From the NCBI GenBank assembly GCA_046597065.1, contig JBKJLI010000002.1:52071-116070 (forward strand): 64,000 nucleotides of DNA, in the 5' to 3' direction. The translations under genes were made by a program, and so were the position numbers. Under the pieces are notes generated by a model. It worked only from the letters and a program-made list of their open reading frames with translations, did not search any database and was not told where the DNA came from. This document shows positions 3,791 to 61,024 of this stretch, one piece after another (position 1 is the first letter of the stretch; the number at the start of each line of letters is the position of its first letter). The DNA comes from Candidatus Saccharimonadia bacterium. Its GTDB lineage: Bacteria > Patescibacteriota > Saccharimonadia > UBA4664 > SCTI01.

Positions 3791-3865
3791 TGGTGATCCC
3801 AGGGGGATTCGAACCCCCGTTGCCAGGATGAAAACCTGGTGTCCTAACCCCTAGACGATGGGACC
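3791..3865 (-). tRNA. tRNA-Glu (anticodon UUC)
   Basis: Reverse complement GGTCCCATCGTCTAGGGGTTAGGACACCAGGTTTTCATCCTGG...GGTTCGAATCCCCCTGGGATCACCA shows a cloverleaf with anticodon loop TTTTCAT. Confidence 0.9.
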
Positions 3866-3997
3866 ATATAGGTAACGGTAACCGAGGTATTGTAGCTTAG
3901 CTGGTGGTCATTTTCAACCTGTAAGAGGCTTTTTTACTGGTTAAGCTTCCTGTACACTTAAACTTAATCAAATACCAAAAAAACGCCAAGGAGGTTT

Positions 3998-7429: not shown

Positions 7430-7441
7430 CCCTGAATTAGC

Positions 7442-7475
7442 GAGACCCCGCAGGACATGGGGCCTCGCGGGGTCT
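7442..7475. terminator. GC-rich imperfect palindrome between convergent tpiA and the minus-strand cassette (bidirectional terminator candidate)
   Basis: GAGACCCCGCAGG-ACATGG-GGCCTCGCGGGGTCT. A similar hairpin sits at 8771-8801. Confidence 0.45.
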
Positions 7476-7504
7476 ATTCAATGGGTTTAACCCATCTAAT
7501 CACC

Positions 7505-8710
7505 TCACTTTCGTTTTCTCAGGCGATCTTCAAGGTCGCTAATTGTGAGTCGTTGTTGCTCACTCCTGGTTTGGAGTGCGCTTAGACGCGCATCCTGGAT
7601 CCCAGAGTCTGCCTGGTGTCGAGCGCAGGCCGCATCTAGTTCGCCAACTCGCTTCTTAACGCGTCGCAGCTCATCGACTTTGAGCCTCAACTGACCCCTG
7701 AGCTCTTCAACCGTCTCTTCGGAACCGCCGCGAATGGCCCCGAGTTTTACTTCCAACCTGTCGACCTCGCCTTGAAGTCGATTCTTGGTTCGAGTATGTG
7801 CCTGCCGTTCTGTTTCGAGTGATGTTGCGAGCTCTGTAAGCCGCAACTTTTGGCTGGCAGCTTCGGCGCTATCTCCAACTGTTGCGCTAGCTTTAGCTTG
7901 TCTTAGCTCGCGTTCAAGGTCCAAAATACGACGTTCCAGAAGGGCGTTTTGCTCTTGGATCTCTCGATGATCATCAAAGCTCACCACCCGCCGGCTCTTG
8001 AGACCGACGATCTCACGGTCCTTCTCATCGAGCAGAGCCGTTAAGCGAGTGACTTCATCGTTTTGGTCTTTGGGGGTAGGTACTTCTTCGAGCTCATCAA
8101 GTAGCTCACGGATCTCGGCCAGTTTTGCTTCACAACTATATACAAGGCCTTCTAGATGTTCGTCGACTTCACGTTTAGTGAGTTCGATTCGCCCAAGCTC
8201 ACTTTTGATGGCGGCAAGAAGCTCAACATCGGGTGCCGACTTCAGTACTTCTAGCTGGGCTTCAAGCTCAAGCTGTTGAATCAGAATTTCCTTCAGCGTT
8301 TGCTTGGCCGCTTCGACTTCTGTTGCTAGTTTGAGAATCGATGCCTCAATGGCCGCGACTGAACGTGGTGAGTTAATTGTTGCCGCGGTTATATCGCTGC
8401 GGTCGGCCACGAGTACGGGTATTGTGGCGGATCCTTGCGCATGAAGGAATTGTAGACCAGAGTCTGTGAGCTTGATCCAATATGTGCGCTTGCCGATGAC
8501 TTTGCGCTCGAAGTGACCGTGTTTATGGTTGTGAACTAACAGTTGCCTTAAAGCAGAAGAAGGTGTGCCCATTAGTTCTGCCAGCTTTCGCGTGACACCC
8601 CCACTAGGATCGCTAAACTGATAGTTTGGCTGGCTATAAAGCACAGCCAGCATCTTTAGATACTGCGGGCTGCTGCGCATTACAACCTCCTGGGTTGAAA
8701 GTAGGTACAT
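7505..8710 (-). CDS. Hypothetical protein with an N-terminal winged-HTH-like domain and a ~300 aa coiled coil (KfrA-like architecture); high GC. The real start is probably the internal Met (MRSSPQY..., about 8678-8680), which has an AGGAGG SD
   Basis: ORF-track protein. N-terminal ~95 aa is globular (YWIKLTDSG); the rest is heptad-rich in E/L/R/K/Q. AGGAGGttgtaATG precedes the internal Met. Local GC is clearly above the flanks. Confidence 0.6.
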   Translation of the reverse strand: MYLLSTQEVVMRSSPQYLKMLAVLYSQPNYQFSDPSGGVTRKLAELMGTPSSALRQLLVHNHKHGHFERKVIGKRTYWIKLTDSGLQFLHAQGSATIPVLVADRSDITAATINSPRSVAAIEASILKLATEVEAAKQTLKEILIQQLELEAQLEVLKSAPDVELLAAIKSELGRIELTKREVDEHLEGLVYSCEAKLAEIRELLDELEEVPTPKDQNDEVTRLTALLDEKDREIVGLKSRRVVSFDDHREIQEQNALLERRILDLERELRQAKASATVGDSAEAASQKLRLTELATSLETERQAHTRTKNRLQGEVDRLEVKLGAIRGGSEETVEELRGQLRLKVDELRRVKKRVGELDAACARHQADSGIQDARLSALQTRSEQQRLTISDLEDRLRKRK

Positions 8711-8804: not shown

Positions 8805-9533
8805 TCAGTTGGTGAGGTTCAGCAAGGTGCGGATCGGCTGAATCTCGGGGAAGTTGCGCTGTTCGAAGTCGCAAGGGTTGGTAATGATCTTGCCGAACTG
8901 GCGAACGAAGCGGGTTATGTCGTGTGCTCCGAGGAGCTGCGACGGTCCCAGCGGCTCAAAGAACTTCCAGCGGGTAGGGTTAGGCAGCCCAGCACGGCGC
9001 AGCAGCTGGTTGAGCTGCTTGTGGCTCCCTTCGCTAATCGAGTGGTAGAGCTCTTCGGCCAATTTGTCGAGGAGCACCTGCATTCTCTGCTCGTAATCAC
9101 TGGGCCCGCGGCGCATTCTCTGCACCGCGTCGTCGTGATCCTGCCAGCGGAACTCATCGCGCCAGGTGGGGATCATGGCTGCAGACCGGCGGCCAGCATC
9201 GGTTGCCGGCAGCTTTGCCTTCAGCTGCCCAACCTTACGCTGTGGCGACGCCTCCTTAGAGTGGTGCAGCGACCAGCGGTCGATGGGGTTGGAGTTGATG
9301 CTGCTGATGTTGCCTCGGATGTACCTACGATCACGAGGCACTTCGAGCAAGCTAGAGTTGTCGTAGAACGTCTCGCTATCCTTCAGCACCTTACGCAGCT
9401 GGTTCTTGATGCGCTTGCGATGAGAGCGATTGCAGCTCTTCTTGGCCTCGGGATAGAAGCGGGTCTTCGTCTTGGTGTTGCACGCCAAGTGACGTACCTT
9501 ATCCTCGCCGTAGAGCAAGGTAACTCCTTTCAT
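8805..9533 (-). CDS. Hypothetical basic protein (242 aa), first gene of the high-GC minus-strand cassette
   Basis: Protein-like composition, against an Ala/Leu/Arg-rich antisense ORF on +. Preceded by a 3-codon uORF with a strong SD (GGAGGTGActtcATGAGTTCATAAactcATG). Confidence 0.55.
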   Translation of the reverse strand: MKGVTLLYGEDKVRHLACNTKTKTRFYPEAKKSCNRSHRKRIKNQLRKVLKDSETFYDNSSLLEVPRDRRYIRGNISSINSNPIDRWSLHHSKEASPQRKVGQLKAKLPATDAGRRSAAMIPTWRDEFRWQDHDDAVQRMRRGPSDYEQRMQVLLDKLAEELYHSISEGSHKQLNQLLRRAGLPNPTRWKFFEPLGPSQLLGAHDITRFVRQFGKIITNPCDFEQRNFPEIQPIRTLLNLTN

Positions 9534-9686: not shown

Positions 9687-11873
9687 GTGATGAGTATGTT
9701 GTTAAAAGATTTAAATGATCCGCAACGCCAAGCGGTGCTTCAAACCGAGGGGCCGGTGTTAATGTTGGCAGGAGCCGGTAGTGGTAAAACCAAGGCGCTA
9801 ACGCATCGGATTGCCCACTTGGTGGCCGATAAAGGTGTTTCGCCGGGACAAATACTGGCGGTAACCTTTACCAATAAAGCCGCTGGCGAGATGCGTGCGC
9901 GGGTGCTAACTCTACTAGGCAAACGGGTTGATAACCGTCATTTTTTGCCTTATATTGGCACCTTTCATTCAATATGCGTACGGATGTTGAGGCAAGATGG
10001 CGACCGGATTGGATTGAGTAAAAGTTTCAGTATTTTTGATGCTCAGGATTCACTATCGGCCACCAAGCAAGCCATGCGCCAAATTGGAATAGATGAAAAG
10101 CAGTTTTCGCCAAACTTAATATCTAACTTGATATCATCGGCCAAGAATGAACTGCTGGGCCCAGAAAGCTACGCAAAGCATGCCCATGGAGCCGCCCAAG
10201 AAGTGACAGCCAAGGTTTACCCACTGTATGAGCGTTTACTGACAGAAGCCGGCGCACTGGATTTTGATGATCTAATAATGAAAACGGTAAAAATGTTGAG
10301 CCAACCCGAACTGCTTCAAAAGTGGCAGCACCAGTTTGCTTACGTAATGATAGATGAGTATCAAGACACTAATCATGCCCAGTATCGGCTGGTAAAGCAG
10401 TTAGCCTTAAGTCATCGCAACATCTGTGTGGTTGGCGACGACTGGCAGGCTATTTATTCTTGGCGCGGTGCCAACTTTCAGAACATTCTGGATTTTGAAA
10501 AGGATTATCCCGATGCGGTGATTATCAAATTAGAGCAGAACTATCGATCGACCCAAAACATATTGGCGGCAGCCGATGCAGTGATCACTAAGAATCTGGT
10601 GCGCTCTAAAAAAGAGCTGTGGACCGATCAAGCCGACGGCGCCAAGGTGCAAGTAGTGACGGTTTATGATCAAAACCATGAGGCCGATACCATCTGTGAG
10701 TTAATTGATCGGCATGTAAGGGCAGGCGAATATAAGCTATGCGATTATGCAGTTTTATACCGAGTGGGCGCTCAGTCGCGGTCGCTAGAAGAGTCGCTAT
10801 TGCGACATAATCTGCCCTATAAGATTATTGGTGGTACGCGCTTTTATGAGCGCAAAGAGGTTAAAGACGCCCTGGCCTATCTGCGCTTTATCCATAACCC
10901 TGGTGATATCGTTAGTTTTAACCGCATTATTAATCTGCCGCCACGGGGCTTGGGCGACAAAAGCTTAGAGCGATTGGGGCAGTATCAACGCGGCCACAAT
11001 CTTAGCCTGTTAGATGCACTGCTGACTTCTAGCCAAGTCGAGAGCTTAACTCCTCGAGCACGGGAGGCTTTAATGCGTTTTTATGATCTGATTATGGGAT
11101 TACGAGGTGAAATCGAAAATCTTTCGATTGGCCAGTTGCTAGATCGGGCGCTTAAGCAAAGTGGATATATTGACTACTTAAACGACGGAAGTATTCCGGC
11201 GGCCGAGCGGTTAGAAAACATTGCCGAGTTGCTGCGAGTCTCTGAAACCTACAGCGAGCTAGGGCTAGAGGGCTTTTTAGAAGAGATTGCTCTGGTGTCA
11301 GACATCGACAACTACTCTACAGATGCTGATGCCGTTACATTGATGACGCTACATGCTGCCAAGGGGTTAGAGTTTGAGGTGGTGTTTATGCCCGGAATGG
11401 AGGAAGGGATCTTTCCTCATGGTCGTAGCGCATTTGATCAGTCCCAGCTCGAGGAAGAGCGGCGGTTGTGTTATGTGGGTATGACAAGGGCAAAACAGCG
11501 TTTGGTAATGCTTCATACCCAATCGCGCCTGCTTTATGGAGGGGTTCAGCATAATCCACCTTCGCGATTTTTGCTCGATATACCGGCGCAGCTACGTGAG
11601 GGCGATACGCTTACGGCTGGATCTACGGTTACAGCTCCTAGCCCAGAGCGGTTTGTGGGGGGTAACCCGTTTAATGATCTAGAGTTTGAAGGTTTAAGTG
11701 ACGGCTTGGCTCCAGAGAAAGCTAATCTAAAGCCAGGCGATCAAGTTAGCCATGCCAAGTTTGGAGAAGGCCTGGTGGTGTCGGTGGTTGGCGATGAACT
11801 TACGGCGACATTTGTGGGGGTTGGTACTAAAAAACTTAGTCTGTCGTTTGCACCGATTCAAAAGTTAAAATAA
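9687..11873 (+). CDS. uvrD: ATP-dependent DNA helicase UvrD/PcrA
   Basis: 728 aa; Walker A AGAGSGKT; helicase motifs (DEYQDTN, GDDWQAIY, VTLMTLHAAKGLEF). Promoter-like TTGTGACA...TGGTACAAT 8 nt before the start. Confidence 0.9.
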   Translation: MMSMLLKDLNDPQRQAVLQTEGPVLMLAGAGSGKTKALTHRIAHLVADKGVSPGQILAVTFTNKAAGEMRARVLTLLGKRVDNRHFLPYIGTFHSICVRMLRQDGDRIGLSKSFSIFDAQDSLSATKQAMRQIGIDEKQFSPNLISNLISSAKNELLGPESYAKHAHGAAQEVTAKVYPLYERLLTEAGALDFDDLIMKTVKMLSQPELLQKWQHQFAYVMIDEYQDTNHAQYRLVKQLALSHRNICVVGDDWQAIYSWRGANFQNILDFEKDYPDAVIIKLEQNYRSTQNILAAADAVITKNLVRSKKELWTDQADGAKVQVVTVYDQNHEADTICELIDRHVRAGEYKLCDYAVLYRVGAQSRSLEESLLRHNLPYKIIGGTRFYERKEVKDALAYLRFIHNPGDIVSFNRIINLPPRGLGDKSLERLGQYQRGHNLSLLDALLTSSQVESLTPRAREALMRFYDLIMGLRGEIENLSIGQLLDRALKQSGYIDYLNDGSIPAAERLENIAELLRVSETYSELGLEGFLEEIALVSDIDNYSTDADAVTLMTLHAAKGLEFEVVFMPGMEEGIFPHGRSAFDQSQLEEERRLCYVGMTRAKQRLVMLHTQSRLLYGGVQHNPPSRFLLDIPAQLREGDTLTAGSTVTAPSPERFVGGNPFNDLEFEGLSDGLAPEKANLKPGDQVSHAKFGEGLVVSVVGDELTATFVGVGTKKLSLSFAPIQKLK

Positions 11874-19467: not shown

Positions 19468-20067
19468 ATGAGACGATTCCAGATTGTGTTAGTGATGATG
19501 GGTTTACTGCTAGTGGCAGTGGTAACCTTGATTGTAGGCATCGGTTTTTACTTATCACCGCAGGATGATTTGCGACCAGCCGACATGATTGTGGCGGTTA
19601 GTGGCGGCGAAACTCAGCAACGAGCAGCCGAGGCCATTAAGTTATATAAGGAGGGCTATGCTCCTAAGCTGCTATTTTCGGGTGCTGCAGTTGATAAATC
19701 CGGACCATCCAATGCCGAAGCAATGCGTATGCAAGCGCTTAAATCGGGCGTATCAAGTAGCGCCATTATTGTTGAAGAAAATTCCAGAAACACCACCGAA
19801 AACGCGCTGGCATCCGCCCCAATTATTAAATCGGCTGGCGCCAAAACAATAATTCTAGTCACCTCGCCCTACCATCAGCGCCGCGCCAGCCTCAATTTTA
19901 AGAAGGTTTTGGGTAATGATGTAACGGTGGTTAACCACTCGTCGGTTGATAGTGCCTGGCGCAAAAACTCCTGGTGGAGCGATCCTTATACCCTTAACTT
20001 AACGTTCGGCGAGCTCCAAAAAACCGTTTACGTAGTATCGACTAAGCCCGATGAAAGCCCCAAATAG
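19468..20067 (+). CDS. DUF218 (ElyC/SanA/YdcF family) membrane-anchored protein
   Basis: N-terminal TM; IVAVSGGE...NSRNTTENA motifs. TATAAT lies 7 nt before the ATG. Confidence 0.7.
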   Translation: MRRFQIVLVMMGLLLVAVVTLIVGIGFYLSPQDDLRPADMIVAVSGGETQQRAAEAIKLYKEGYAPKLLFSGAAVDKSGPSNAEAMRMQALKSGVSSSAIIVEENSRNTTENALASAPIIKSAGAKTIILVTSPYHQRRASLNFKKVLGNDVTVVNHSSVDSAWRKNSWWSDPYTLNLTFGELQKTVYVVSTKPDESPK

Positions 20068-21188
20068 TGCGGGTATACGTTGGCTTAAGTGGCGGAGTTG
20101 ATAGTGCCGTAACGGCGGCTTTGCTGCAGCAGCAAGGCTTTGATGTAACGGGTGTGTACATGAAAAACTGGACGCAGGATTTACCCGGCGCAAAGTGCCC
20201 TTGGGCAGAGGATTTGGCCGATGCCCGGGCGGTAGCAACACATCTCGATATCCCATTTAAAGTTTATGATTTCGAGCGCGAATATAAGCAACAAGTTGTG
20301 GACTATATGGTGGCCGAGTATCAAGTTGGGCGCACACCTAATCCAGATGTAATGTGCAACCAAGAGATTAAGTTTAAACTGTTTTTAGATGCCGCTATTT
20401 CCGATGGAGCAGACATGATCGCGACCGGTCACTACGCCTCTATTAAAAAAGGCGAACTGTTTAGGGGAATCGACGACAACAAAGACCAGACCTACTTTTT
20501 GTATCGTGTCACGGGGGCAGCGCTAGCTAAAACACTGATGCCAATTGGTGATTACACCAAGCTTGATGTACGCGAACTTGCTAAAAAGTTCGGGCTACCA
20601 AACGCGACTAAAAAAGATTCACAGGGAATTTGTTTTGTTGGTCCGGTTGGAATGAAAGCTTTTTTACAGCAGTACGTTAAAACCAAGAGCGGCGACATTC
20701 TTGATAAAGGGGGTAAAAAGTTGGGCGAGCATGCTGGTGCGATTTTTTACACCATTGGTCAGAGGAGCGGCTTAGGGATTGGCGGCCCCGACGGCCCCTA
20801 CTTTGTGGTCGGCAAAAATTTGGATCGCAATGAGGTGTATGTTACGAGCGACCCGGCCGATTTAGAGTTGCAGAGTGATCGGGTAAGTTTGGGTGACTTA
20901 CACTGGATTGGTGGGGCGCCTATTGAGGACAAAGAGTATCTAGTGCGCTTTCGCCACCGCGGGGAGCTGCAGGAATGTGGAGTGGCTCCAGATAATAGCG
21001 GTTACGAGTTACATCTTCAAAAACCAGCCCACGCCCTGGCCTCTGGCCAGTCGGCGGTAATCTATGATGATCGCAAAGTTCTGGGGGGCGGGATAATCTA
21101 TGCCAATGTGGCCAAGGACGAAGGCACACATTGGGTCGAAGAGTCGGAGTTTCCAGACTATCATAAGGGGGCAGCCGGTTTGGCATGA
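20067..21188 (+). CDS. mnmA: tRNA-specific 2-thiouridylase MnmA
   Basis: PP-loop GLSGGVDSAV, CN motif and C-terminal domain. Confidence 0.9.
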   Translation: MRVYVGLSGGVDSAVTAALLQQQGFDVTGVYMKNWTQDLPGAKCPWAEDLADARAVATHLDIPFKVYDFEREYKQQVVDYMVAEYQVGRTPNPDVMCNQEIKFKLFLDAAISDGADMIATGHYASIKKGELFRGIDDNKDQTYFLYRVTGAALAKTLMPIGDYTKLDVRELAKKFGLPNATKKDSQGICFVGPVGMKAFLQQYVKTKSGDILDKGGKKLGEHAGAIFYTIGQRSGLGIGGPDGPYFVVGKNLDRNEVYVTSDPADLELQSDRVSLGDLHWIGGAPIEDKEYLVRFRHRGELQECGVAPDNSGYELHLQKPAHALASGQSAVIYDDRKVLGGGIIYANVAKDEGTHWVEESEFPDYHKGAAGLA

Positions 21189-21253
21189 AGAAGCCCCAGG
21201 GGGCTCTCCACTCAGAACCTGAGTTTTGAGCCCACTAGGGCTGGGGTCGGAAG

Positions 21254-21391
21254 TTAATCCGGCGGTTGGTCATTCGCGTGGTTGTTCTGGGGTGGGTAGC
21301 TCGGATCGCCCCAGCTCCACCACACGAAGAGCAGTCCGTGAAGTACGATACCGGCCAAGATGGCAAGCACAATCGCTTCCGCGTTACTCAT
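21254..21391 (-). CDS. Possible small membrane protein (45 aa) in a high-GC spacer, not in the ORF track
   Basis: Translation MSNAEAIVLAILAGIVLHGLLFVWWSWGDPSYPPQNNHANDQPPD. The SD is weak. Confidence 0.2.
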   Translation of the reverse strand: MSNAEAIVLAILAGIVLHGLLFVWWSWGDPSYPPQNNHANDQPPD

Positions 21392-21429: not shown

Positions 21430-21831
21430 TTAGCCCAGAAATACCAGGCCATACTCCGCCAACTTGGCCTCGACCTCGTTGATTGAGTGGTTGCCCATGT
21501 TGGGAATCATCTCCATGTCGTGACGTGAAAGTTCGATCAGCTCTTGGACGGTTGAGATGTGAGCACGCGAGAGGCAGTTGTAAGCCCGCACGCCCAATTC
21601 AAGCTCTTCGAGCCGAGTGTCGCCAAGAGGCTTATCAAAACTCCGGTGCGCTTCGGGTAGTTGGACTCCTTGGTTGCTGAATACACGTGGCATCACGTCG
21701 ATCGTGAGTGTGTAGCCGAGTTGAGTTCCTTGTAGGGCAGCCTTGATTCTTTCAATCTGCTCATAAAGATCATTCGGTTCACCGACAAGAGTTCCGTCTA
21801 TACTACCCTTTACTTCGAGTACAATCTGCAT
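21430..21831 (-). CDS. Standalone RNA polymerase alpha-subunit C-terminal-domain (alphaCTD)-like protein with a ~55 aa N-terminal extension
   Basis: LEELELGVRAYNCLSRAHISTVQELIELSRHDMEMIPNMGNHSINEV matches the alphaCTD helix-hairpin-helix. SD GGAAGGA upstream. GC above the genome average. Confidence 0.65.
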   Translation of the reverse strand: MQIVLEVKGSIDGTLVGEPNDLYEQIERIKAALQGTQLGYTLTIDVMPRVFSNQGVQLPEAHRSFDKPLGDTRLEELELGVRAYNCLSRAHISTVQELIELSRHDMEMIPNMGNHSINEVEAKLAEYGLVFLG

Positions 21832-21980
21832 AGCAGATCCTTCCAGTGAGTTCTCTTAATCCGAAGACTTAGCAATAACAAAGTACCATAAAAGTATAGT
21901 AAGTCAAGCAGAAATTAGTAAATTCTTACTGAAGTGCAACATAAGCAGTAAAAACTATCGCGCAGTAGGAATAATACCTC

Positions 21981-22090
21981 ATGACAACCGATCAAATCCG
22001 CTCAAAAATATTTAGAGTTTATGCAGGCAAAGGGGCATACGATAGTGTCATCGGCTCCGGTGTCGGGTAGCATAGTTGCAGCTGAGGCGA
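21981..22090 (+). pseudogene. Degenerate duplicate of the alaS 5' end (about 85% identity over ~110 nt, frameshifted), followed by a fragment resembling the 5' half of the adjacent tRNA
   Basis: atgacaaccgatcaaatccgctcaaaaatatttagagtttatgcaggcaaagg... against the alaS start atgacaaccgatcaaattcgctcaaaatttttagagttcatgaagctaaaagg. The 22108-22147 fragment resembles tRNA positions about 22230-22270. Confidence 0.6.
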
Positions 22091-22145
22091 TCAAGAGGTA
22101 AGATAGACTTACTTCGCGGGCGATCCCGTCAACTCAGACGGCATT

Positions 22146-22173
22146 TAAAAAAAGACGCATCAAGCGTCTTTTT
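22146..22173. terminator. Bidirectional rho-independent terminator (AAAAAAGACGC-atcaa-GCGTCTTTTTT)
   Basis: Perfect 7-bp stem flanked by an A-run and a T-run; sits just downstream of the minus-strand tRNA. Confidence 0.65.
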
Positions 22174-22185
22174 TGTTGGGAATGA

Positions 22186-22275
22186 CTGGCGGTGGAAGTG
22201 GGATTCGAACCCACGAGAGACCTAGATCTCTGATCACTTCGCGGGTGATTCCGATAAACCACTCCGGCATTCCAC
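22186..22275 (-). tRNA. Type-II tRNA (long variable arm, G73; Ser-like) with an anomalous anticodon loop CCGCGAA: C33 and apparent anticodon GCG. Either a variant or a pseudo-tRNA
   Basis: Reverse complement GGTGGAATGCCGGAGTGGTTTATCGGAATCACCCGCGAAGTGATCAGAGATCTAGGTCTCTCGTGGGTTCGAATCCCACTTCCACCGCCA. Acceptor, D, T and 18-nt variable arms all fold. The loop is non-canonical. Confidence 0.65.
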
Positions 22276-22351
22276 CGGATGAGCCAGCCAGACCCACAAC
22301 GAGTATTTCAAATCAAGATTAAATCCCGGTTAAACTGATACAATAATTCTG

Positions 22352-24157
22352 ATGACAACCGATCAAATTCGCTCAAAATTTTTAGAGTTCATGAAGCTAA
22401 AAGGTCACACCATCGTGCCGTCGGCGCCGGTGTGGTTGGCTGATGACAAGTCAACGCTGTTTACCAGCGCCGGCATGCAGCCAGTGGTTCCATACCTATT
22501 GGGCAAAAAACATCCTGGTGGCAGCCGAATTGCCAATAGTCAAAAATGTATCCGCACCGATGATATCGAGGAGGTGGGGGACAACCGCCACTTAACTATG
22601 TTCGAAATGCTCGGAAACTGGAGTCTGGGAGATTATTTTAAGAATGAGTCAATTGCATGGAGTTTTGAATTTTTAACGGCTAAGCAGTGGTTGGGGCTTG
22701 ATCCAAAGCGCCTTTATATAACGGTTTATGAAGGCGACGTTCAAGTACCACAAGATGATGAGGCGGCGGAAATTTGGGTAGAGCAGTTTAAGGCCGTAGG
22801 CATTGAGGCTAAACTAGGTGGCCGTATCCAAACCCGCGGTGCCAGCGATAACTGGTGGGCTTTAGGCCCAACTGGACCCTGCGGACCAGACACCGAGATA
22901 TTTTATTATATCGGCAATGATGAAGATCCAAAATTTGCCGATAGCGATGAGTTTATCGAAGTTTGGAACAACGTATTTATGGTTTACGACCGCCAGGGCG
23001 AGGGCGACTTACGCGACTTGCCAGCCAAAAATGTAGATACCGGTATGGGGCTAGAGCGTATAGCGGCGGTGGTTCAAGGTGCCTCAAGTGTTTTTGATAC
23101 CGATCTAATGCACCAGATCATATTGCGAATATTGGGGGTGGCCGGACACCACTTTGAGCCGGTCTTTCGCGAAACTGATCACGATTTGGGTCGGGCGGCG
23201 CGGATTATTACCGATCACTTGCGCAGTGGGGTGTTTATGGCGGCCGATGGTGTGGTACCAAGCAACACCGATCGTGGTTATGTCATGCGCCGGCTGCTGC
23301 GCAGAGCTATCCGCCAGGGGTTGGTGCTAGGTATTCGCAGCGATCTTTTCGTTCAGGTCGCACCAAATATTATCGAGTTGTATAAAGCTGCATTCCCGGA
23401 GCTAGGCCAGAATCAGCAGACAATTATTGCTACCCTAGAAAAAGAAGAGCAGCTGTTCCGTAAAACTCTAGATAATGGTGTGCGCGAGCTAAAGAAGTTA
23501 GCGGCTGATGGCTTGAGTGGGCGAGATATATTTACGCTGTTTGATACTTATGGCTTTCCTCCAGAACTATCGGTTGAAGACGCAATCAGAGAAAGTATAG
23601 TTGTTGATTCGGGCTGGCAAGACCAGTTTAATCGTTTAATGGATGAACAAAAGCAGCGTTCACGTACAGCGGGAGCGGGGGAGTTTAAGGGTGGCTTGGC
23701 CGATCATGAACCAGCTACAGTACGACATCATAGTGCCACCCATTTAATGTACCAGGCACTAAGACAGGTTTTAGGCAAAGAGGTGGTGCAGCGCGGTTCA
23801 AACGTTAACTCTGAGCGTTTGAGGTTCGACTTTTCGCATGATACTAAGCTTACGGATGATGAAAAGCAGCACATTGAAGCAATCGTAAATGAGCAGATTA
23901 AAAATGACTTAAAAGTTTGGTTCGAAGAGCACCCCACCGATGAGGCTTTTAAGTTGGGGGCTAAAGGTGCTTTTGGGGATAAGTACGGTGATACGGTAAA
24001 GGTCTATTTTATGGGCAAAGACGGTGATGAGCCATTTAGTGTTGAGATTTGTGGCGGACCTCACGTTGATCGCACTGGCGATATGGGGCACTTTAGAATT
24101 CAAAAAGAGGAATCATCGAGTGCCGGAGTGCGCCGCATAAAAGCTAAATTAGAGTAG
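22352..24157 (+). CDS. alaS: Alanyl-tRNA synthetase, short form (catalytic and editing regions, no C-terminal C-Ala domain)
   Basis: 601 aa; class II AlaRS N-terminal motifs; editing-domain HSATHLM...CGGPHV. Extended -10 TGATACAAT 8 nt before the ATG. Confidence 0.9.
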   Translation: MTTDQIRSKFLEFMKLKGHTIVPSAPVWLADDKSTLFTSAGMQPVVPYLLGKKHPGGSRIANSQKCIRTDDIEEVGDNRHLTMFEMLGNWSLGDYFKNESIAWSFEFLTAKQWLGLDPKRLYITVYEGDVQVPQDDEAAEIWVEQFKAVGIEAKLGGRIQTRGASDNWWALGPTGPCGPDTEIFYYIGNDEDPKFADSDEFIEVWNNVFMVYDRQGEGDLRDLPAKNVDTGMGLERIAAVVQGASSVFDTDLMHQIILRILGVAGHHFEPVFRETDHDLGRAARIITDHLRSGVFMAADGVVPSNTDRGYVMRRLLRRAIRQGLVLGIRSDLFVQVAPNIIELYKAAFPELGQNQQTIIATLEKEEQLFRKTLDNGVRELKKLAADGLSGRDIFTLFDTYGFPPELSVEDAIRESIVVDSGWQDQFNRLMDEQKQRSRTAGAGEFKGGLADHEPATVRHHSATHLMYQALRQVLGKEVVQRGSNVNSERLRFDFSHDTKLTDDEKQHIEAIVNEQIKNDLKVWFEEHPTDEAFKLGAKGAFGDKYGDTVKVYFMGKDGDEPFSVEICGGPHVDRTGDMGHFRIQKEESSSAGVRRIKAKLE

Positions 24158-60942: not shown

Positions 60943-61024
60943 CGGGGTGTGGCTCAGCCCGGTAGAGCACTTCTGTTAATTTTTTTGGCAGAGGCGGTCG
61001 CAGGTTCGAATCCTGCCACCCCGA
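60943..61024 (+). tRNA. tRNA-like element: initiator-like acceptor/D-arm (CGGGGTG..GCTCAGCCCGGTAGAGC), intact T-arm, but a 13-15 nt anticodon loop (TTAATTTTTTTGG). Intron-containing or degenerate tRNA; no CCA encoded
   Basis: 7-bp acceptor CGGGGTG/CACCCCG; T-arm GCAGGTTCGAATCCTGC. The anticodon stem CTTCT/AGAGG encloses an over-long loop. Confidence 0.4.

Follow-up and report, generated by a model that had tools for sequence, protein, structure and literature searches.

A tRNA gene with a serine-type body and an arginine anticodon lies beside alaS in a 64,000-nucleotide stretch of DNA from a Candidatus Saccharimonadia bacterium (contig JBKJLI010000002.1 of assembly GCA_046597065.1; we refer to the whole stretch as the window). 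The gene is at 22187–22276 on the minus strand. Its anticodon loop, CCGCGAA, contains the anticodon GCG, and a C occupies position 33, where U33 is expected. We tentatively favor the view that this is a hybrid-identity tRNA, with a Ser body, the Arg anticodon GCG, and decoding that is damped by C33. Such a tRNA would probably be expressed weakly and charged with serine.

ARAGORN identifies five tRNA genes in the window. It labels the one at 22187–22276 as tRNA-Arg with anticodon gcg, which it places at gene position 35. The gene is 90 nt long and its sequence, with the parts set apart, is GGUGGAA UG CCGG AGUGGUUUA UCGG A AUCAC CCGCGAA GUGAU C AGAGAU CUAG GUCUCU C GUGGG UUCGAAU CCCAC UUCCACC G CCA. 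All 27 pairs of the cloverleaf are standard (25 Watson-Crick and 2 G-U), the acceptor and T arms have 7 and 5 bp (7/5), and U8, A14, G18, G19, and the T loop UUCGAAU are all intact. The CCA is encoded, as it is in the window's other tRNA genes. The sole departure from a textbook type-II tRNA is the anticodon loop (22238–22244, minus strand), with C33, the anticodon GCG (22240–22242), A37, and A38. In a focused scan of this region, Rfam's tRNA model (RF00005) gives the gene 48.9 bits, which is comfortably above the gathering score of 29; a scan of the whole window with default filters overlooked it.

An earlier note on this sequence had described a 90-nt, type-II, Ser-like tRNA with G73 and the loop CCGCGAA on the minus strand, and ARAGORN, Rfam, and the pairing bear this out. 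The note had also allowed that a predictor might call a canonical Ser anticodon, which would point to a transcription error, or that the covariance score might be low. ARAGORN's call of GCG shows that there was no such error, and the score is not low. With no broken stems, with the invariant bases kept except for U33, and with a score above the threshold, the gene does not show the decay of a pseudogene. Its minimum-energy fold is not the cloverleaf (-36.5 vs. -29.3 kcal/mol), but non-cloverleaf minima are common for unmodified tRNA sequences, so we do not hold this against the gene.

Seryl-tRNA synthetase (SerRS) recognizes the long variable arm, the acceptor and D stems, and G73, and it ignores the anticodon. 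The variable region of this tRNA has 18 nt with a 6-bp stem. This falls inside the range for Ser (14–23 nt) among the predicted type-II tRNAs of the loci that we compared. G73, G2:C71, and C11:G24 are all present, and among the same predicted tRNAs, G73 is found in 8 of 11 Ser tRNAs and in 0 of 18 Leu or Tyr tRNAs. The single near full-length match from a phage is an annotated tRNA-Ser, and several phage matches to the 3' half are likewise tRNA-Ser. By the established identity rules, the body appears to be serine-type, because SerRS reads the variable arm and not the anticodon, and we predict that it would be charged accordingly.

A20 is an identity element of bacterial tRNA-Arg, and C35, G36 or U36, and A73 or G73 have been given as further elements (PMC8629427). 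G34, C35, G36, and G73 of this tRNA are compatible with arginine, but A20 is absent (a U follows G19 in the D loop, AGUGGUUUA), and the body is not a type-I body with a short variable loop. Nor is the loop CCGCGAA that of a serine tRNA, which would have an NGA or GCU anticodon and U33. We excluded an 8/4 or 9/3 fold, as U8 cannot pair with the base preceding the 3' acceptor strand. The sequence also excludes tRNA-Sec and alanine identity by G3:U70.

The codons that correspond to this anticodon, CGC and CGU (together, CGY), encode arginine in this organism. The adjacent alaS has 18 CGC and 8 CGU codons, which are its main arginine codons. In an alignment with 119 homologs, CGC or CGU codons coincide with invariant or near-invariant arginines at at least 15 positions, such as 7, 68, 236, 291, 313, 317, 321, 489, 594, and 595 of alanyl-tRNA synthetase (AlaRS). 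Because of these alignments, we conclude that the genetic code is standard here; the tRNA is no sign of a changed code. The earlier note's claim that CGC encodes Arg is confirmed, and its reasoning that a fully active copy would insert Ser at Arg codons is supported. More broadly, bacteria of the Candidate Phyla Radiation (CPR) appear to lack tRNA-Arg(ACG) and to use tRNA-Arg(GCG) for both CGU and CGC, and reassignment of CGC was not seen (Shulgina and Eddy, PMC8629427). So, GCG is the clade's normal arginine anticodon and is not exotic, but here it is on a Ser-type body. Because CGY encodes arginine, only a damped decoder would be tolerable.

We propose that the gene would be transcribed at a low level, with transcription stopping at its own terminator, and that the transcript would be processed. 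SerRS would then charge the tRNA with serine via the variable arm, the stems, and G73. C33 would weaken the U-turn, so that the tRNA would be a poor competitor of the normal tRNA-Arg(GCG) at CGY codons. The outcome would be at most a trace of Arg-to-Ser substitution, and the gene would be tolerated. The loop may have originated from the CUGCUAA loop of tRNA-Ser(GCU), as two substitutions would give CCGCGAA. The gene may have arrived beside alaS by recombination with DNA of a diverged relative, which would have left behind a frameshifted alaS start and a half-tRNA (both are described below).

The intact cloverleaf, the invariant nucleotides, the encoded CCA, and a strong terminator that starts 11 nt past the 3' end of the tRNA all fit this proposal. 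Also, the tRNA combines a mismatch between body and anticodon with a replaced U33, which is the hallmark of natural hybrid-identity tRNAs. And C33 does not appear to be lethal to a GCG loop, because two intact phage tRNA-Arg(GCG) genes with A20 have the loop CCGCGAA. In IMG/VR, these two with C33 compare to about 27 phage tRNA-Arg(GCG) genes with U33 (CUGCGAA) and the same closing pair and T loop.

Further evidence comes from a degenerate copy of the D arm and anticodon arm (about nt 5–42 of the tRNA), which is separated from the full gene by 40 nt that hold only the terminator. The earlier note had reported a 40-nt tRNA fragment at 22108–22147, and this half-tRNA is real: the minus strand at ~22108–22147 aligns to nt 6–41 of the tRNA, with 29/37 positions identical, and just 1 of 2,000 shuffles scored equally well. 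Also, the 17-nt anticodon arm has three matches in the window with at most 3 mismatches, while 0.05 would be expected by chance. The terminator (22147–22175) is an intrinsic terminator that appears to be bidirectional, with an A-run, a hairpin formed by AAAAGACGC and GCGUCUUUU, and a T-run; it also shows up as an inverted self-match at 22148–22174.

The half-tRNA has the identical CCGCGAA loop, and because of this, the odd loop seems to predate the split of the gene and the half-tRNA. Otherwise the two have fared differently. About 22% of positions have changed in the half-tRNA, and neither A14 nor the D-loop GG remains in it. The full gene has stayed perfect and has lost nothing. Pair 13–22 covaries, with both bases changed between the full gene (G-U) and the half-tRNA (U-A). 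We simulated neutral drift to estimate how probable the survival of all 27 pairs and 8 invariant bases would be. The probability was 0.002 at 12% change per site (half of the observed divergence) and 0.04 at 6% change per site (a quarter of the divergence). An intact gene beside a decayed fragment argues for constraint on the sequence, at least until recently. The earlier note had concluded that this was either a pseudo-tRNA or a tRNA with an uninterpretable loop. Given that the loop is shared with the fragment and that the gene is perfect, we do not consider a pseudogene to be the default, although a relic remains the main rival.

Along the chromosome, the order is a partial copy of alaS, the half-tRNA, the terminator, the tRNA, and alaS itself. 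The intact alaS (22352–24157, plus strand) encodes, by homology, a short-form alanine--tRNA ligase of 601 amino acids. The partial copy (21970–22063, plus strand) matches 22342–22433 with 80.9% identity over 94 nt (E = 1e-18). It comprises 11 nt of upstream sequence and codons 1–28, with the ATG at 21981, and an extra A in an A-run near 22005 shifts its frame. Its identity to the alaS starts of relatives is 71–77%. The earlier note had described a copy of ~110 nt (21981–22090) that was ~85% identical and included the promoter. The copy is real, but it is smaller and more diverged, it ends at 22063, and as only ~11 nt of upstream sequence are common to both, it contains only the part of the promoter nearest the -10 element. 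The 44 nt of filler between the alaS copy and the half-tRNA (22064–22107) do not significantly match the tRNA, alaS, or the relatives.

If we correct for the frameshift, codons 1–27 of the copy and of the live alaS have 14 differences, of which 9 are at third positions, and 8 codons have synonymous differences only. If a third of the differences were expected at third positions, then the probability of 9 or more of 14 would be ~0.02 (binomial, hand-calculated). Because the differences are mostly at third positions and spare the protein sequence, the two alaS starts seem to have diverged as working genes in separate lineages and to have been joined later by recombination. In other words, the copy looks like a diverged allele that was captured by recombination, and not like a duplicate that decayed in place. 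The earlier note had called this region a "local duplication or rearrangement scar". The scar stands, but given the bias towards third positions, local duplication is too simple. Similarly, we rejected a simple tandem duplication, which would predict the junction of alaS nt 84 with tRNA nt 42 but not the rest of the order. We also rejected an attachment site for an integrase: the repeated half of the tRNA is the 5' half, which is the wrong one, and there is no element. Indeed, we did not detect integrase, phage, toxin, antitoxin, or transferase families in the neighboring genes of the tRNA. The base composition across 19–25.5 kb is unremarkable. A sliding comparison of alaS with five relatives did not reveal a mosaic breakpoint, but these relatives are too diverged at synonymous sites.

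Several points weigh against a hybrid-identity tRNA. The tRNA is a singleton in the collections that we searched. Neither a Ser-like GCG tRNA nor a duplicate of the alaS start is present upstream of alaS in eight related loci. Querying genome contigs with AlaRS gave only relatives with at most 46% identity and no similar tRNA. When we scanned metagenomes with the pattern CCCGCGAAG N20-35 GGTTCRAATCC, there was no homolog among the matches listed (80 loci, 120 stretches); the loci among these matches were tmRNA ends, coding sequence, and other tRNAs, all unrelated to this gene. Three scans of IMG/VR with exact pieces of the tRNA found no homolog: two had no match at all, and the third gave only a phage tRNA-Leu(UAA) with the same first 22 nt and one match that is not a tRNA. 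A six-frame protein query, with three open reading frames (ORFs) across the tRNA, found nothing among spurious ORF calls in 5.8 billion proteins. Furthermore, a -10 element resembling TACAAT lies 13–25 nt upstream of the window's canonical tRNA genes (TACAAT itself precedes tRNA-Glu and tRNA-Ala(CGC)), and we saw no comparable element for this tRNA on the minus strand, although consensus scans are weak evidence. The gene is also located in a rearrangement scar. C33 would be expected to impair decoding (PMC11415595). CGC is the commonest arginine codon, so even weak insertion of Ser would be costly. The argument for constraint fails if the gene arrived lately from a donor in which it was functional. 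Finally, the charging, the expression, and the decoding of the tRNA are predictions from its sequence.

Many of these points would also fit the main rival, a relic, to which we assign a lower but still substantial probability. The gene would be a redundant copy of a tRNA-Ser-type gene that is dead or dying, that was silenced by U33C, U36G, and the loss of its promoter, and that sits passively in the scar. Being a singleton, lacking a TACAAT-type promoter (unlike the window's canonical tRNA genes), and having a C33 that should impair decoding (PMC11415595) are what a relic would predict, as is the company of two pseudogene fragments (the alaS-start copy and the half-tRNA). Also, this genome keeps crippled tRNA genes, such as one with an aberrant loop at 60943–61024 that lies directly after a terminator and is apparently silent. 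On the other hand, no stem pair is broken and U33 is the only invariant base lost, while the sister fragment changed by ~22% (the simulated P of 0.002–0.04), and both of the putative lesions are confined to the 7-nt loop. Nor does the loop look like a recent hit, as it is common to the fragment. It is unlikely, in our view, that this is a genuine Arg tRNA with an unusual body, charged by arginyl-tRNA synthetase via C35 and G36, which would decode CGC and CGU harmlessly and might have a dual identity. In its favor, CPR bacteria read CGU and CGC with a GCG anticodon (PMC8629427), C35, G36, and G73 are compatible with Arg, ARAGORN labels the gene as Arg, phage tRNA-Arg(GCG) genes with the identical C33 loop exist, and at least one phage tRNA-Arg(ACG) among the compared loci has a long variable arm. 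But A20 is missing (U follows G19), and the body is Ser-like throughout. The relatives have no such gene at this site, so it is not the clade's essential CGY decoder there, and the canonical tRNA genes have stronger promoter signals than it does.

The gene might instead encode a tRNA-shaped RNA that acts off the ribosome, which we consider improbable. Such an RNA might be a decoy for enzymes or toxins that act on anticodon loops, a seryl donor in a non-ribosomal reaction, or a partner in a sense/antisense pair. In the last case, a plus-strand transcript would run from the promoter of the alaS copy through the tRNA fragment to the shared terminator. A body that looks constrained together with a non-canonical loop would fit such a role. 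At 16 of 18 positions, the plus strand at 22108–22128 is complementary to the tRNA's anticodon arm, and it ends at the bidirectional terminator, but this complementarity follows automatically from the duplication. tRNA-like genes with aberrant loops recur at two intergenic hot spots in the clade, and many allo-tRNAs are translationally inactive and are near toxin-antitoxin genes (PMC5389517); the neighboring genes here gave no match to toxin, antitoxin, transferase, or phage families. We found no conservation, and the RNA is predicted from sequence only. Lastly, an assembly artifact, or reassignment of CGC and CGU to serine, has very little chance of being correct. The window is from a metagenome-assembled contig, but a chimera from collapsed strains would not give a half-tRNA after a gene start that is truncated and frameshifted. 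Also, all retrieved overlaps of the window with an independent Logan assembly show 100% identity, although the alaS locus is not among them. As for reassignment, it conflicts with the 15 or more alaS positions at which CGC or CGU aligns with invariant Arg.

The eight related loci were found via homologs of AlaRS, and two of them (L084 and L085) are near-identical. AlaRS homologs also assign the window to the Saccharimonadales (Patescibacteria), and the closest other genome has 79% identity by AlaRS. The conserved gene order is metG, tatD, Aminotran_5 (a class-V aminotransferase), a DUF218 gene, mnmA, alaS, and ftsA. In three distinct relatives (L084 and its near-duplicate L085, L213, and L214), mnmA directly abuts alaS. 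In the others, the spacer between mnmA and alaS varies: L081 has def (peptide deformylase) and a stand-alone gene for the C-terminal domain of the α subunit of RNA polymerase (α-CTD), L082 has an ASCH gene and L083 has a PP2C gene, each with a tRNA-like gene, and L215 has small ORFs. The spacer in the window is of the L081 type, with def reduced to a remnant. This spacer appears to be a hot spot for insertions and deletions across the clade.

The α-CTD gene of the window (21430–21831, minus strand) encodes a stand-alone protein of 133 amino acids and is also present in L081. Together with the def remnant, it belongs to an older insert between mnmA and alaS that is common to the window and L081. 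The remnant is at 21112–21342, and 21129–21166 is 95% identical to the 3' part of def from L081. The reading frame of mnmA (20067–21188) now runs into the remnant. The alaS copy occupies the place of L081's alaS start, next to the α-CTD gene, but the live alaS start is slightly nearer to L081 in sequence than the copy is. The divergent spacer between the tRNA and alaS is at 22277–22351, of which 22304–22351 is conserved with L084. The -10 element of alaS, TACAAT at 22339–22344, is just 7 nt before the ATG. Being so near the start codon, it suggests that the alaS mRNA is leaderless or nearly leaderless.

Other odd tRNA-like genes are found in the window and in related genomes. At 60943–61024 (plus strand), the window has a gene with a tRNA-Pro-like body (C1:G72, A73; 52 bits with Rfam) and a 13-nt loop, UUAAUUUUUUUGG. 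ARAGORN missed this gene, which starts directly after the terminator downstream of trxB and has no promoter of its own in sight. At the syntenic site in the trxB-ppa spacer, L253 has a gene with a 6-nt loop, CCACAA (11107–11180), which ARAGORN could not assign, and L252 has an Asp(GUC)-like gene with G33, G8, and G14 (11135–11210). The acceptor stems differ in all three lineages. Beside alaS, and divergent from it, L082 (3817–3888, minus strand) and L083 (~3818–3890, minus strand) have a tRNA-like minihelix gene whose acceptor stem includes G3:U70, which is the alanine identity pair. The minihelix has a normal T arm, a non-tRNA core, and a terminator after it, as well as a tmRNA-like match in Rfam (33 bits). 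Compensatory changes in acceptor pair 6 and the T stem distinguish the L082 gene from the L083 gene.

Two phage loci from IMG/VR (L232 at ~7440–7530 and L240 at ~11300–11390) have a tRNA-like gene that combines a long variable arm and a D arm of the Leu type with the loop CUGCGAA (GCG). The acceptor stem is poorly paired. The gene is possibly another hybrid or a degenerate type-II tRNA. Separately, a soil metagenome locus (L167, 13827–13918, minus strand) has a 92-nt tRNA labeled Ile(UAU) by ARAGORN. Its acceptor stem is extended, and its extra arm, in which CCCGCGAAG occurs, is long. It may belong to the allo-tRNAs(UAU) that Mukai et al. described.

Odd tRNA-shaped genes at intergenic hot spots may be recurrent in this clade, which would raise both the relic and the novel-function explanations. 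We speculate, with little confidence, that the Saccharimonadales keep tRNA-shaped genes with deliberately non-decoding loops at these hot spots. The examples would be the Ser-like gene with GCG and C33, the Pro-like gene with the 13-nt loop, the Asp-like gene with G33, and the alaS-adjacent minihelix with G3:U70. They might function away from the ribosome, for instance as decoys for nucleases that target anticodons or as regulated toxic tRNAs; in this window, the tRNA would be paired with an antisense RNA.

Natural tRNAs whose body and anticodon disagree show how much ambiguity the code tolerates, and they are starting material for code engineering. The precedents in the literature that we consulted are the yeast tRNASer with G33, the actinomycete tRNAProX with A33, and the 8/4 and 9/3 allo-tRNAs. 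If the hybrid interpretation is true, then C33 would be a third non-U33 solution and the first case from the CPR, in an episymbiont with a reduced genome. As CGC and CGU are the main arginine codons, it would also be a stringent test of how such a tRNA stays harmless. If it is a dead copy, then the locus would be of more modest value, as a clean illustration of how recombination can capture a gene start and as a caution to tRNA annotators that predictors label a Ser-type gene as tRNA-Arg.

Among known systems, the nev-tRNAs of nematodes have type-II bodies with Leu identity and anticodons for Gly or Ile, but they are eukaryotic, multi-copy, and conserved across species. In bacteria, allo-tRNAs with Ser identity most often have the anticodons UAU, GCG, or GUC; some are active in E. 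coli and others are inactive or pseudogenized (Mukai et al. 2017, PMC5389517). Like our tRNA, allo-tRNA(GCG) has a long variable arm and serine identity with a non-serine anticodon. However, allo-tRNAs are defined by a 12-bp acceptor branch that is split 8/4 or 9/3, rather than 7/5, and they have been reported from other groups such as the Acidobacteria, often beside toxin-antitoxin genes, none of which we detected nearby.

Canonical CPR tRNA-Arg(GCG) (PMC8629427) has the same anticodon, the same codons (CGU and CGC), and a compatible A73 or G73. But Arg tRNAs of the canonical kind have a type-I body whose variable loop is short, and they carry A20 and U33, in contrast to the 18-nt arm, the U after G19, and the C33 of this tRNA. 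Two otherwise intact phage tRNA-Arg(GCG) genes from IMG/VR (L087 at 8969–9044 and L089 at 1827–1899) share the CCGCGAA loop. They have a short variable loop and A20 and are plausible acceptors of arginine, and their similarity to our tRNA is limited to the anticodon loop and the T loop.

Other parallels are natural mistranslating tRNAs, which often replace U33. According to a 2024 review (PMC11415595), decoding appears to be curtailed by G33 in a tRNASer, which would regulate mistranslation, and tRNAProX carries A33. In both Candida tRNASer(CAG), with G33, and Streptomyces tRNAProX, the identities of the body and the anticodon disagree and U33 is replaced, as they are here. Those tRNAs are conserved across species, whereas ours is a singleton, and tRNAProX has a dedicated synthetase, ProRSx, whereas ours has no partner gene in the neighborhood that we searched. 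What distinguishes the tRNA at 22187–22276 from both of them is its combination of C33 with a Ser body and an Arg anticodon.

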